From IMG/VR virus record IMGVR_UViG_2896607866_000011: a stretch of DNA of 12,302 bases; one strand, given 5' to 3'. Shown piece by piece: positions 4,958 through 8,544 of the stretch (the stretch's first letter is position 1; each line of letters opens with the position of its first letter). The notes under the pieces are model-generated. The model saw nothing but the letters and a program-made list of their open reading frames with translations, did no database searches and had not been told where the DNA came from. Source of the stretch: a virus. Lineage: Duplodnaviria; Heunggongvirae; Uroviricota; Caudoviricetes. Made by a program: the position numbers and the translations under genes.

Positions 4958-6566
4958 ATGCATGGGTTTATCTGGTTTACCTGGTTCATTAATGGGGGTT
5001 CACAAAAGAGCTCAGAGAGAAGGATGGCTCAAGAGAAGAAGAGAAGGAATTAGAGGGGTTGCTTACGAATACCATATATCTTCTCTTCCTAACATTGCTC
5101 GAGCTGAAGTTTTGCTCCAACAAGGAAAATTTAAAACCAGTCAGGGATGTTTTGAAATCGCCCGCCCCACGCTGGAAGCTCATGATTATGATCGTGAGGC
5201 ACTATGGAGCAAATGGGATAAAGCCAGCGATTCCCAGCGCAGCCTGGCTGAAAAATGGTTGCCCTCAATTCAGGCCACAGACGAAATGCTGAACCAGGGG
5301 ATTTCAACGAAAACGGCTTTTGCGACCGTTGCAGGGCATTACCAGGTCAGCGCATCCACTTTGCGGGACAAGTATTACCAGGTACAGAAGTTTGCGAAGC
5401 CTGACTGGGCGGCTGCACTTGTTGATGGACGTGGAGCATCCCGTCGCAATGTTCACAAAAGTGAATTTGACGAGGATGCCTGGCAGTTTCTGATTGCAGA
5501 TTATCTGCGACCGGAAAAACCCGCCTTCCGCAAATGTTATGAGCGTCTGGAACTGGCAGCCCGCGAGCATGGCTGGAGTATTCCCTCCCGTGCCACGGCC
5601 TTTCGCCGGATTCAGCAACTGGACGAGGCAATGGTTGTTGCCTGTCGTGAAGGTGAACATGCACTGATGCATCTGATACCGGCACAGCAGCGAACTGTGG
5701 AACACCTGGACGCCATGCAGTGGATCAACGGCGACGGTTATCTGCATAACGTCTTTGTACGCTGGTTTAACGGTGATGTGATCCGTCCGAAAACATGGTT
5801 CTGGCAGGATGTGAAAACCCGAAAAATTCTGGGCTGGCGCTGCGATGTGAGCGAGAACATTGATTCAATTCGCCTCTCGTTCATGGATGTTGTGACTCGC
5901 TACAGTATCCCGGAGGATTTTCACATCACCATTGATAACACCCGTGGTGCTGCGAATAAATGGCTGACGGGAGGCGCGCCCAATCGCTACCGCTTTAAGG
6001 TAAAAGAGGACGATCCAAAAGGACTGTTTTTACTGATGGGTGCGAAAATGCACTGGACAAGCGTTGTTGCCGGTAAAGGCTGGGGCCAGGCAAAACCTGT
6101 TGAACGTGCTTTCGGTGTTGGTGGGCTTGAGGAATACGTTGATAAGCATCCGGCACTGGCTGGCGCATATACGGGGCCAAATCCGCAGGCAAAACCTGAT
6201 AACTATGGCGACCGCGCTGTTGATGCAGAGCTGTTTCTGAAAACCCTTGCCGAAGGTGTGGCGATGTTCAATGCCAGAACAGGCCGTGAAACAGAAATGT
6301 GCGGGGGCAAACTCTCGTTTGATGATGTTTTCGAGCGTGAATACGCCAGAACGATTGTGCGTAAGCCAACCGAAGAACAAAAACGGATGCTGTTACTGCC
6401 TGCCGAGGCGGTGAACGTTTCACGCAAAGGCGAGTTTACGCTTAAAGTTGGCGGCTCCCTTAAAGGCGCGAAAAACGTTTATTACAACATGGCATTAATG
6501 AATGCCGGAGTGAAAAAAGTTGTGGTCAGATTTGATCCACAGCAGTTACACAGCACGGTTTATTGA
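4932..6566 (+). CDS. A: Mu-type DDE transposase A, 3'-truncated (544 aa versus about 663 aa); stop codon supplied by the first bases of the adjacent IS
   Basis: From about residue 75 onward near-identical to MuA as recalled ([23 protein letters not shown] ... [15 protein letters not shown]); N-terminal about 75 aa differ from Mu A; ORF ends where the IS600-like element begins (TGA at 6564..6566). Confidence 0.9.
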
Positions 6567-6627
6567 GGTAGCCTGAGTTTAACGGACACTCCTTCCTGAA
6601 ATAGAATGGCATCAGAAGGAGCTAATA

Positions 6628-6930
6628 ATGAGCAGAAAAACCCAACGTTACTCTAAAGAGTTCAAAGCCGAAGCTGTCAGAACGGTTCTTGAAAATCAAC
6701 TTTCGATCAGTGAAGGCGCTTCCCGATTATCTCTTCCTGAAGGCACTTTAGGACAATGGGTTACCGCCGCCAGAAAAGGGCTCGGTACTCCTGGTTCCCG
6801 CACGGTGGCTGAACTGGAATCTGAAATTCTGCAACTGCGTAAGGCGTTAAATGAAGCTCGCCTTGAGCGCGATATATTAAAAAAAGCAACAGCGTATTTT
6901 GCACAGGAGTCGCTGAAAAATACGCGTTAA
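6628..6930 (+). CDS. IS3-family (IS600-like) transposase OrfA, HTH and leucine zipper
   Basis: 100-aa ORF MSRKTQRYSKEFKAEAVRTVLENQLSISEGASRL...; AGGAG Shine-Dalgarno at about 6617; A-run TTAAAAAAAGC at 6877..6887 is the likely -1 frameshift site. Confidence 0.88.
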   Translation: MSRKTQRYSKEFKAEAVRTVLENQLSISEGASRLSLPEGTLGQWVTAARKGLGTPGSRTVAELESEILQLRKALNEARLERDILKKATAYFAQESLKNTR

Positions 6931-6965
6931 TCGAACAATGGCGACAACAATTTCCCATTGAAGCG

Positions 6966-7784
6966 ATGTGTCAGGTATTTGGTGTATCCAGGAGCGGTTA
7001 TTACAACTGGGTACAGCATGAACCCTCAGACAGAAAACAAAGTGATGAGCGGCTAAAACTGGAGATTAAGGTGGCACATATCCGCACTCGCGAAACATAT
7101 GGAACCCGGCGGCTCCAGACGGAGCTGGCAGAGAATGGCATCATCGTTGGTCGTGACCGACTGGCACGTCTTCGTAAGGAGCTAAGGCTACGCTGTAAGC
7201 AGAAACGCAAGTTCAGAGCGACTACGAACCCGAACCACAATCTGCCAGTTGCGCCAAATCTGCTGAACCAGACGTTCGCTCCTACAGCACCAAATCAGGT
7301 CTGGGTGGCGGACCTGACGTATGTTGCCACACAGGAGGGATGGTTGTACCTCGCTGGCATCAAAGATGTTTATACGTGCGAAATTGTCGGCTACGCCATG
7401 GGAGAGCGCATGACAAAAGAGCTGACAGGTAAAGCCCTGTTTATGGCGCTCAGGAGCCAGCGCCCACCTGCCGGGCTAATCCACCACTCTGATCGAGGTT
7501 CACAGTACTGCGCATACGATTACCGGGTCATACAGGAGCAGTCTGGTCTGAAAACATCAATGTCGCGTAAAGGTAACTGTTACGACAACGCTCCGATGGA
7601 AAGCTTCTGGGGAACGCTGAAAAATGAGAGCCTGAGCCACTATCGTTTTAATAACCGGGATGAAGCCATCTCAGTAATACGGGAATACATTGAGATTTTC
7701 TACAATCGTCAGCGTCGTCACTCTCGTCTGGGGAATATCTCCCCGGCAGCCTTCAGGGAAAAATATCATCAGATGGCTGCTTAA
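6966..7784 (+). CDS. IS3-family (IS600-like) transposase OrfB, DDE integrase core (made as OrfAB fusion by -1 frameshift)
   Basis: 272-aa ORF with IS3-family integrase-core motifs (WVADLTY..., HSDRGSQY..., ...FYNRQRRHSRLGNISP); frame is -1 relative to orfA. Confidence 0.88.
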   Translation: MCQVFGVSRSGYYNWVQHEPSDRKQSDERLKLEIKVAHIRTRETYGTRRLQTELAENGIIVGRDRLARLRKELRLRCKQKRKFRATTNPNHNLPVAPNLLNQTFAPTAPNQVWVADLTYVATQEGWLYLAGIKDVYTCEIVGYAMGERMTKELTGKALFMALRSQRPPAGLIHHSDRGSQYCAYDYRVIQEQSGLKTSMSRKGNCYDNAPMESFWGTLKNESLSHYRFNNRDEAISVIREYIEIFYNRQRRHSRLGNISPAAFREKYHQMAA

Positions 7785-7827
7785 AAAAAGAACAAATGGT
7801 AGTGTCCGCTATTGCCAGTACACCTCA

Positions 7828-8544
7828 AACAATAAGGTCATTACAGATACAGGTTGCGGAAATATTTGTCTTGCAGGTGCTGTGGTGGAAGTTACTGGCA
7901 CTCGCGGCGCAATGACCATACGCGTTACTACGCCAAGTACGTCCAGCGGCGGCGGAATCACTAACGCTCAATTCACTTATATTAATCATGGTGATGCTTA
8001 TGCTCCTGGCTGGCGAAGAGACTACAATACGAAAAACCAGCAGCCTGCATTTGCTTTAGGGCAAACAGGAAGCAGGGTTGCAAATGATAAAGCTGTTGGC
8101 TGGAACTGGAATAGCGGTGTTTATGATGCAAATATCAGCGGTGCATCAACATTAATCCTCCACTTCAATAAGAATACGGGGAGCTGCCCTGCTGTACAGT
8201 TCCGTGTGAATTATAAGAACGGCGGTATTTTTTATCGTTCAGCGCGTGATGGTTATGGATTTGAGGCTGGCTGGTCAGAGTTTTACACCACAACACGCAA
8301 GCCATCAGCGAGAGATGTTGGCGCATATACGCAGGCAGAATGTAACTCAAGGTTTATTACAGGTATTCGCCTTGGTGGTCTGTCATCTGTTCGGACATGG
8401 AATGGTCCCGGCTGGTCTGACAGGTCAGGTTATGTTGTTACCGGTTCCGTTAACTCAAACAGAGATGAACTAATTGATACAACTCAGGCAAGGCCAATTC
8501 AGTATTGCATTAATGGGACGTGGTATAACGCGGGGAGTATTTAA
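7828..8544 (+). pseudogene. S: Tail fiber protein S, variable C-terminal part (Sv) of the G segment; 5' portion and constant part Sc deleted
   Basis: Reading frame open from the IS right end with no native start; C-terminus ...QYCINGTWYNAGSI parallels the inverted paralog S'v (...[14 protein letters not shown]); followed directly by U. Confidence 0.7.

Follow-up and report, generated by a model that had tools for sequence, protein, structure and literature searches.

IS600 at the joint of an internal deletion in a Mu-like prophage remnant in dpiA

Cryptic remnants related to the Mu-like phage SfMu are common in Shigella flexneri and have already been reported (PMC4406740). IS600, an IS3-family element originally from Shigella, contributes to genome rearrangement in the same species: a deletion between two IS600 copies on the S. 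flexneri virulence plasmid removed the pINV type III secretion island (PMC5629016), and S. flexneri genomes differ from one another by inversions that IS elements, in one case IS600, have mediated (PMC1550401). It is established that IS3-family elements mainly copy out a circle and paste it in, as summarised in PMC11708052, and the same work assigned 14 of 14 deletion-associated IS150 events in the E. coli long-term evolution experiment to adjacent deletion, often growing with time. Here, we describe an IS600 copy in a prophage remnant within a 12,302-nucleotide stretch of DNA, referred to below as the window, that is filed as a viral contig in IMG/VR (IMGVR_UViG_2896607866_000011).

The outer parts of the window are host DNA. 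Positions 1-2916 match 6001-8916 of the corresponding E. coli BL21 locus and 11959-12302 match 8912-9255, so that the two host segments overlap by 5 bp and are otherwise contiguous. Between them lies a Mu-like prophage remnant (Table 1) with Mu-type ends, which were read directly: the left end TGTATTGATTCAC... starts at 2917, and the right end ...CGCCGCTTCA closes at 11958 with the terminus ...GCGCCGCTTCA. Because the remnant retains its two Mu ends and the flanking CCCAG duplication, the loss described below was internal and happened in place. Collinear blocks with SfMu and Mu, Pfam domains, and annotations give the gene order c, ner, A ... G segment, gin, com, mom, with the interior absent. 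The remnant most resembles SfMu (also Mu and D108), being collinear with SfMu in the left end and A (98% identity from codon ~57), the G segment (94%), and com, mom, and the right end (96%); the 5-bp duplication is likewise of the Mu type. Unlike in these three phages, the interior lacks 29.7 kb, and 379 bp are missing from within gin. The immunity region (c, ner, and the 5' end of A) is also unrelated to theirs at the DNA level, being instead 93% identical to that of a prophage in E. coli UMNF18.

Table 1. Positions of features in the window
Feature	Position	Strand	Basis or remark
Mu 5-bp target duplication CCCAG in dpiA	2912-2916 (left); 11959-11963 (right)		Overlap in BL21 alignment
Mu-like prophage remnant in dpiA, 9042 bp including IS1 and IS600	2917-11958	+	blastn against SfMu, Mu, and E. 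coli BL21
Truncated transposase gene A' (544 aa)	4932-6566	+	ORF list; translation; Pfam
Left 3-bp flank TAT	6561-6563		Directly before IS600
IS600 (IS3 family), apparently intact	6564-7827	+	1264 bp; 99.8% end to end against annotated IS600; Pfam
IS600 orfA	6628-6930		ORF list
A7G slippery run in IS600	6879-6886		Predicted -1 frameshift site
IS600 orfB	6966-7784		ORF list
Right 3-bp flank AAC	7828-7830		Directly after IS600
3' part of tail-fibre gene, 239 codons in frame	7828-8544	+	Variable part, homologue of Mu Sv'
Sole remaining gix crossover core, right end of G segment	10649-10664	-	Only gix core found

The initial annotation had recognised an "IS600-like" IS3-family element. Its coordinates stand, while the qualifier is too weak, and the element can be called IS600 itself: it aligns over positions 1-1264 with 99.8% identity to IS600 on S. 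flexneri, S. sonnei, S. dysenteriae, and S. boydii plasmids, and it is 100% identical to the copy in two complete genomes (L003 and L004). Its termini, TGAGGT...ACCTCA, have TG...CA tips and form imperfect inverted repeats in which 19 of the first 27 positions are paired. The frames contain the Pfam domains HTH_Tnp_1 and rve. In another assembly, the two are annotated as one fused product of 385 aa. By sequence, full-length near-identity, TG...CA inverted repeats, and the two-frame orfA/orfB layout with the A7G run all place the element in IS600. In one respect it is unlike the usual IS600 copy, namely in lacking the 3-bp flanking duplication, TAT being found on one side and AAC on the other. 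This absence speaks to the history of the copy and not to its identity, and it is expected at a deletion joint.

On the left, the element interrupts the transposase gene. The TGA stop codon of A' (6564-6566) consists of IS600 bases 1-3, and the translation ends ...QQLHSTVY*, while that of SfMu A continues ...HSTVYCYTLDG. The shared TGA had been noted before, together with an estimate that A ends about 120 codons early; the exact figure is 118 C-terminal codons, the window gene having 544 codons versus 662 in SfMu and 663 in Mu. A' retains the Pfam domains HTH_Tnp_Mu_1/2, DDE_2, and Mu-transpos_C. Transposition and phage production by the remnant are predicted to be lost, as these 118 residues are missing from A' and neither B nor any morphogenesis gene remains; the effect of such a truncation on activity follows from established knowledge of MuA domain III.

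On the right, the last IS600 base adjoins codon 251 of the tail-fibre gene. The flank begins at SfMu position 32620, within the SfMu tail-fibre gene (31870-33336), and local blastn matched window 7826-10881 to SfMu 32618-35684 and window 7826-9700 to the minus strand of Mu 34785-32910. The element thus ends in mid-gene tail-fibre sequence, as originally described, except that by homology the gene is the counterpart of Mu Sv' and not of Sv. The joint lies 242 bp inside the invertible G segment, which is inverted relative to the Mu reference, and the constant part of the tail-fibre gene and the left gix site have been deleted.

The two flanks are separated by 29,719 bp in SfMu (2901-32619) and by ~29.2 kb in Mu, and they are non-contiguous in SfMu, Mu, and D108 alike (~29.7 kb between). 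Based on the SfMu and Mu annotations, the initial annotation listed the lost genes correctly; the missing interval extends from the 3' end of A through B, the early genes, mor, C, and the lysis, head, and tail genes to Sc and the beginning of the variable portion of the tail-fibre gene. IS600 has no 3-bp duplication because its flanks come from sites 29.7 kb apart. TAT is probably one copy of the duplication made on the original insertion in A, and AAC occurs once at the corresponding place in the uninterrupted relatives L033, L057, and Mu (...TTATGCA followed directly by AACAATAAGG).

Re-defining the ends of the element did not restore a duplication. Boundary shifts of fewer than 4 bases produced no direct repeat, and a wider search (shifts of up to 8 bases per side, repeat lengths of 3-9) gave only chance 3- to 4-mers that needed shifts of at least 4 bases; such shifted ends are excluded because IS600 matches elsewhere run end to end. 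An apparent 13-bp extension of similarity to the left of the IS in E. coli matches proved to be unrelated flank beside an ISEc52 fragment. In a control, five of six independent plasmid IS600 copies had perfect 3-bp duplications at the same boundaries. The earlier statements that the flanks do not match, that this is no simple insertion, and that the IS sits at a deletion junction consequently all hold, each of the refutation tests proposed beforehand having come out in their favour. We regard it as close to certain that the prophage lost its interior in place and that IS600 lies where the two sides of this deletion meet.

The joint recurs identically in two independent complete chromosome-scale assemblies (4.80- and 4.76-Mb contigs) and in two IMG/VR contigs. 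Neither the junction nor an intact prophage at dpiA was found among 5,426 complete E. coli genomes, in which the best match covered 33% of the window and consisted of host genes and IS1. The junction had no match in GTDB species representatives, probably reflecting the folding of Shigella into E. coli there, which we assume. Reciprocal Mu flanks at other IS600 copies were absent from IMG/VR, GTDB species representatives, and JGI metagenomes; after a deletion none are expected, as the circle that loops out does not persist.

The main new evidence comes from related genomes that share the left joint. At the same dpiA::Mu site, an identical left joint (A...TAT, i.e., ...CACGGTTTAT followed by IS600) was found with four different right-hand partners: AACAATAAGG in the window type; TCGGTCTG, corresponding to window position 9685, in L056; ATTCTTTGG, from the head genes of another phage, in L021-L028 and L030, including S. 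flexneri 8401; and GTCATCATC in L029. Across relatives, the left joint is therefore old and the right flank exchangeable. Exact look-ups aimed at the right half of the remnant, with U, Mom, and the N-terminal fragment of DpiA, returned none of the 8401-type genomes. For one partner, all three stages of a deletion via two copies are seen. L028 has a single IS600; L030 has an additional direct copy 2130 bp away with its own 3-bp duplication (GTC); and L029 has a single IS600 flanked by TAT and GTC, with exactly those 2130 bp and one IS absent. In L029, the SNP pattern fits a crossover within the final 284 bp of IS600. SNPs across 23 IS600 copies gave no sign of a chimera in the window copy, a comparison that has no power here since the parent copies are unknown.

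The initial annotation had left two mechanisms undecided, intramolecular transposition and recombination between two IS copies. The relatives favour, but do not prove, the latter, and we consider insertion of a second IS600 followed by IS600-IS600 recombination the probable route, if by a modest measure of confidence. At the outset, an SfMu-related Mu-like phage with its own immunity region transposed into dpiA of an S. flexneri ancestor, a step that the intact ends and the 5-bp duplication document. By the proposed route, IS600 would then have inserted into A after codon 544 at the target TAT; this insertion appears to be the oldest of the IS600 events since its joint is present in every related arrangement in which A is kept. 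A second IS600 in the same orientation would have entered the tail-fibre gene in the G segment at the target AAC, and homologous recombination between the direct copies would have looped out 29.7 kb together with one IS600. The product would be as observed in the window, a single intact IS600 with TAT on the left, AAC on the right, and no matching duplication, in a prophage without a working transposase, B, regulators, or lysis, head, and tail genes. In addition to the L028, L030, and L029 series, the 3-bp duplications in the plasmid controls and in L030 speak for this route. The pINV deletion (PMC5629016) involves the same IS and the same host species and has the same kind of outcome as that series; it differs in that the present case concerns a chromosomal prophage, for whose window joint a two-copy intermediate was not found. 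Specifically, we scanned for the simple-insertion patterns IS600 right end + TAT + downstream A and upstream tail fibre + AAY + IS600 left end. The predicted intermediates (A::IS600 with TAT on both sides and tail-fibre::IS600 with AAC on both sides) were absent from IMG/VR, GTDB representatives, and JGI metagenomes, collections that hold few Shigella chromosomes.

Alternatively, the single IS600 in A could have attacked a target 29.7 kb to the right, intramolecularly or via an IS dimer, in a transposase-driven adjacent deletion. We judge this to be a serious possibility, albeit on balance improbable. The end product would be the same, with no duplication, and the equal final sequence that one resident copy would leave counts to that extent against the two-copy route. 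The element also appears intact and potentially active, and the fixed left joint with right flanks reaching further (window 7828, then 9685 in L056) is reminiscent of IS150 (PMC11708052), in which an IS3-family element likewise lies at deletion joints without duplication and deletions extend stepwise from a fixed IS. However, the IS150 events were classed as arising from a pre-existing copy, while here the sole case with surviving intermediates (L028, L030, and L029) passed via a second copy with its own duplication. Moreover, the copy-out and paste-in pathway of the IS3 family by itself deletes no flanking DNA.

It is very unlikely that the deletion arose in some other way, for instance through a break or through slippage between short homologies, with transposase cutting no target and IS600 being captured or kept at the joint. 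The deleted stretch in intact relatives starts with TG and ends with CA, like the IS tips, which gives 2 bp of microhomology at each joint, and IS insertion into breaks has been proposed (PMC11708052). Yet 2 bp are expected by chance with a frequency of 1/16 per joint, and the left joint is common to arrangements with unrelated right flanks and so predates the deletion. We give next to no credence to the idea that the element reached dpiA already shortened, as a natural mini-Mu with a helper phage, or that a repeated IS led to a false joint in the assembly. With both Mu ends intact, the remnant does have the structure of a mini-Mu; assemblies are also commonly broken or wrongly joined at IS copies, and short-read contigs end at this IS600. 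Nevertheless, at least four different internal structures at the same dpiA site indicate changes that arose in place, and the joint is identical in the two chromosome-scale assemblies and two IMG/VR contigs.

The phenomenon is already known, and the locus is a case of ordinary, well-understood prophage decay in S. flexneri. Beyond annotation, the finding has little significance: although filed among viral contigs in IMG/VR, the sequence is a dead prophage remnant and not a viral genome. It does illustrate cleanly how prophages are shortened by IS elements and how genes are split in Shigella, with dpiA split by Mu and Mu gutted by IS600, and it provides field evidence for an insert-nearby-then-recombine route of IS3-family deletions. 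The series of five arrangements (window, L056, L032, 8401, and L029 types) could serve as an S. flexneri lineage marker. A more far-reaching reading, which we think unlikely, is that the IS600 at codon 544 of A is a repeated rearrangement anchor across S. flexneri, with at least four right-hand partners and a separate IS600-bounded deletion in the same prophage, and that the right-sided bias and the retained genes result from selection or from an asymmetry of IS600. In that reading, the repressor, com/mom, and part of the tail-fibre cassette are retained in every arrangement. If bias and retention do reflect selection (e.g., for immunity to related phages) or IS600 asymmetry, these genomes would represent a natural time series of the growth of an IS3-family deletion in a pathogen.

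The whole window could be mapped by aligning it locally with the sequences of E. coli BL21, Mu, and SfMu (a Mu-like phage of Shigella flexneri): a Mu-like prophage remnant lies between two blocks of host DNA. The sequence CCCAG, present once in E. coli, flanks the remnant on both sides, so the phage entered dpiA by Mu-type transposition and has kept both of its original ends. The interrupted gene, dpiA (citB), encodes a response regulator; at related loci in some genomes, dpiB is called as a shortened or split product. The remnant reads, in order, left end, IS1, c, ner, a truncated A, IS600, the 3' portion of a tail-fibre gene, U, U', the other variable tail-fibre part, gin, com, mom, and right end. 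Its proteins carry a Shigella flexneri label in NCBI and UniRef, and two IMG/VR contigs as well as two assemblies of chromosome scale share the structure of the window.

Features of the window and their coordinates
Feature	Coordinates	Strand	Remarks
Host DNA: pagP, dcuC, 3' part of dpiA	1-2916		alignment to E. coli BL21
dpiA, split	2575-2916, 11959-12302		
CCCAG	2912-2916, 11959-11963		
Mu-like prophage remnant	2917-11958		alignment to SfMu, Mu
IS1	3154-3921		between Mu left end and c; perfect 9-bp duplication
IS1 duplication, CAACCAGGC	3145-3153, 3922-3930		
Repressor c	4031-4540	minus	
A reading frame	4932-6566		544 residues; stop TGA = first three IS600 bases
IS600	6564-7827		1264 bp; ends TGAGGT...ACCTCA
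IS600 A7G slippery run	6879-6886		
Silent tail-fibre variable part	9638-10624	minus	
197-aa open frame	10110-10703	plus	ATG-initiated
gix core	10649-10664		
gin	10718-10915		379-bp internal deletion, joint about 10877-10881; SfMu 35685-36063 absent
Host DNA: 5' part of dpiA	11959-12302		alignment to E. coli BL21

The element next to A, initially annotated as IS600-like, is IS600 itself: it matches annotated IS600 on many Shigella plasmids from first to last base (99.8%), and its orfA and orfB are full length. It is flanked by TAT on the left and AAC on the right, and no flanking repeat was obtained by shifting its boundaries by fewer than 4 bases. Six IS600 copies located on plasmids in unrelated contexts served as controls; in five of them, a perfect 3-bp duplication (TAA, ATA, GTT, TCC, or GTG) lies at exactly the same boundaries. 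In uninterrupted relatives, the site in A reads ...CACGGTTTAT up to the joint and TGCTACACC beyond it, while that in the tail-fibre gene reads ...GGGCTTATGCA followed by AACAATAAGG; in SfMu, the two sites lie 29,719 bp apart. These data bear out the initial annotation, which had placed the IS, lacking a target duplication, at a deletion joint with flanks that are not contiguous in the reference phage; the interior genes that it listed as lost are indeed missing from the remnant, which has no B, mor, or C and none of the lysis, head, or tail genes. A is ended by the start of the IS, as proposed, and comparison with the 662 codons of A in SfMu and 663 in Mu refines the loss from about 120 codons to 118. 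We note that, in intact relatives, TG and CA are the first and last two bases of the deleted stretch, as they are of IS600 itself (6564-6565 and 7826-7827), so that each joint has a 2-bp ambiguity; both matches would arise by chance about 1 time in 256.

To the right of IS600, the flank picks up at SfMu 32620, codon 251 of the tail-fibre gene at 31870-33336, and the remainder of this gene stays in frame over 239 codons. The flank is thus mid-gene tail-fibre sequence, as first described, but not Sv: the G segment (the invertible tail-fibre cassette) of the window has the opposite orientation to that in the Mu reference, and the abutting part corresponds by homology to Mu Sv'. The joint lies 242 bp inside the G segment, only one core of the crossover site gix is found in the window, and the left gix site was lost with the deletion. 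The invertase gene gin also has an internal deletion, the joint of which recurs in two related arrangements (types L056 and L032, described below) and in L057, a separate and apparently full Mu-like prophage; this deletion therefore probably predates the dpiA insertion rather than reflecting subsequent decay. This second prophage (L057 9518-11963; PSSR01000001.1) shares 99.9% identity with the window from gin' through com and mom to the right end. In L057, that end sits inside an IS600 (IS position 1152) beside flgJ. The G segment of L057 runs in the opposite orientation to that of the window and matches it at only 94.9% identity. The 197-aa frame antisense to the silent tail-fibre variable part is probably spurious.

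Relatives were gathered by exact-protein look-ups with the repressor, U, Mom, and the DpiA fragment, which returned many chromosomes that share the Mu insertion in dpiA and have different interiors. Extraction of every IS600 copy with its flanks from these loci gave five arrangements, of which the window type is A...TAT-IS600-AAC... tail-fibre gene. Three have the same left joint: the L056 type, with right flank TCGGTCTG at window 9685 and a further 1857 bp lost; the 8401 type (L021-L028 and L030, including CP000266 from S. flexneri 8401; PMC1550401), with right flank ATTCTTTGG in the head genes of a different phage (94.5% identity to Escherichia phage vB_EcoM-606R2); and the L029 type, with right flank GTCATCATC. 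In the L032 type, IS600 joins positions equivalent to window 3967 and 8091 and is flanked by TGC and AGC, and c, ner, and the truncated A are also lost. Because the left joint is unchanged in four arrangements while the right flank differs, the insertion of IS600 in A is the older event, and this copy has been a repeated exchange site. IS1 is a simple insertion, unlike the IS600 copy, and was absent from all of the related arrangements (L028, L032, and L056), indicating that it is specific to the window lineage. In other genomes (L049, L051, and L055), an IS1 at the equivalent of window 10319 connects gin'-com-mom-right end-'dpiA with a phage integrase, ybhA, modCBA, and galE, genes that lie about 145 kb away on the E. 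coli K-12 map. Judging by the orientation, IS1 may have mediated an inversion or deletion that runs through this remnant.

L028, L030, and L029 form a series. L028 has one IS600. L030 is otherwise the same but carries a second copy, oriented like the first and lying 2130 bp beyond it, with its own 3-bp duplication GTC. L029 again has one IS600, with A...TAT on its left and the GTC flank of the second L030 copy on its right, and lacks exactly the 2130 bp and one IS. Up to position 980, the SNPs in the L029 IS agree with the A-side copy, consistent with a crossover within the final 284 bp. This series captures, in three stages and at the very IS600 copy under study, nearby insertion followed by recombination, a route that has therefore operated in a sister lineage.

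The comparisons show that the deletion in the window arose in situ, within the dpiA prophage. Following the same route, we infer that the window joint was, on balance, made by recombination between IS600 copies: a second IS600, in direct orientation to the first, would have entered the tail-fibre gene at AAC, and recombination between the two copies would have removed 29.7 kb and one IS. Deletions by IS600 × IS600 recombination on the S. flexneri virulence plasmid (PMC5629016) count in favour of this reading. Transposase-driven adjacent deletion from a single copy, the products of which are indistinguishable from those of recombination, is a credible but less probable source of the joint. In its favour, deletions linked to the related element IS150 in the long-term evolution experiment lacked duplications, were classed as adjacent, and enlarged over time (PMC11708052), and the nested window-type and L056-type deletions look like such growing deletions. 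Other routes or an artefact are unlikely.

The window prophage belongs to the Mu/SfMu group but has a different immunity region: megablast of 3922-5100 (c, ner, and the 5' end of A) against Mu, D108, and SfMu gave no match, and a prophage in E. coli UMNF18 matches this region at 93% identity. The region encodes an intact 169-aa repressor, found as an exact match in 6,687 blocks of the public assembly collection; the exact truncated A protein was found in far fewer places (15 contigs). PCR and Southern blotting had already revealed cryptic SfMu-related remnants across many S. flexneri serotypes (PMC4406740), and Shigella genomes are known for IS-mediated inversions and deletions (PMC1550401, PMC7373316). 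In the literature, we found no paper on this particular joint. It is a real feature, ordinary in kind, and its behaviour is within the known range. The last 118 residues of MuA include domain III. Lacking these residues and the genes of the deleted interior, the remnant is predicted to be unable to transpose or form particles, and with one gix site gone and gin broken, its G segment is unable to invert on its own. The reading frames of the repressor, ner, com, and mom are still open.
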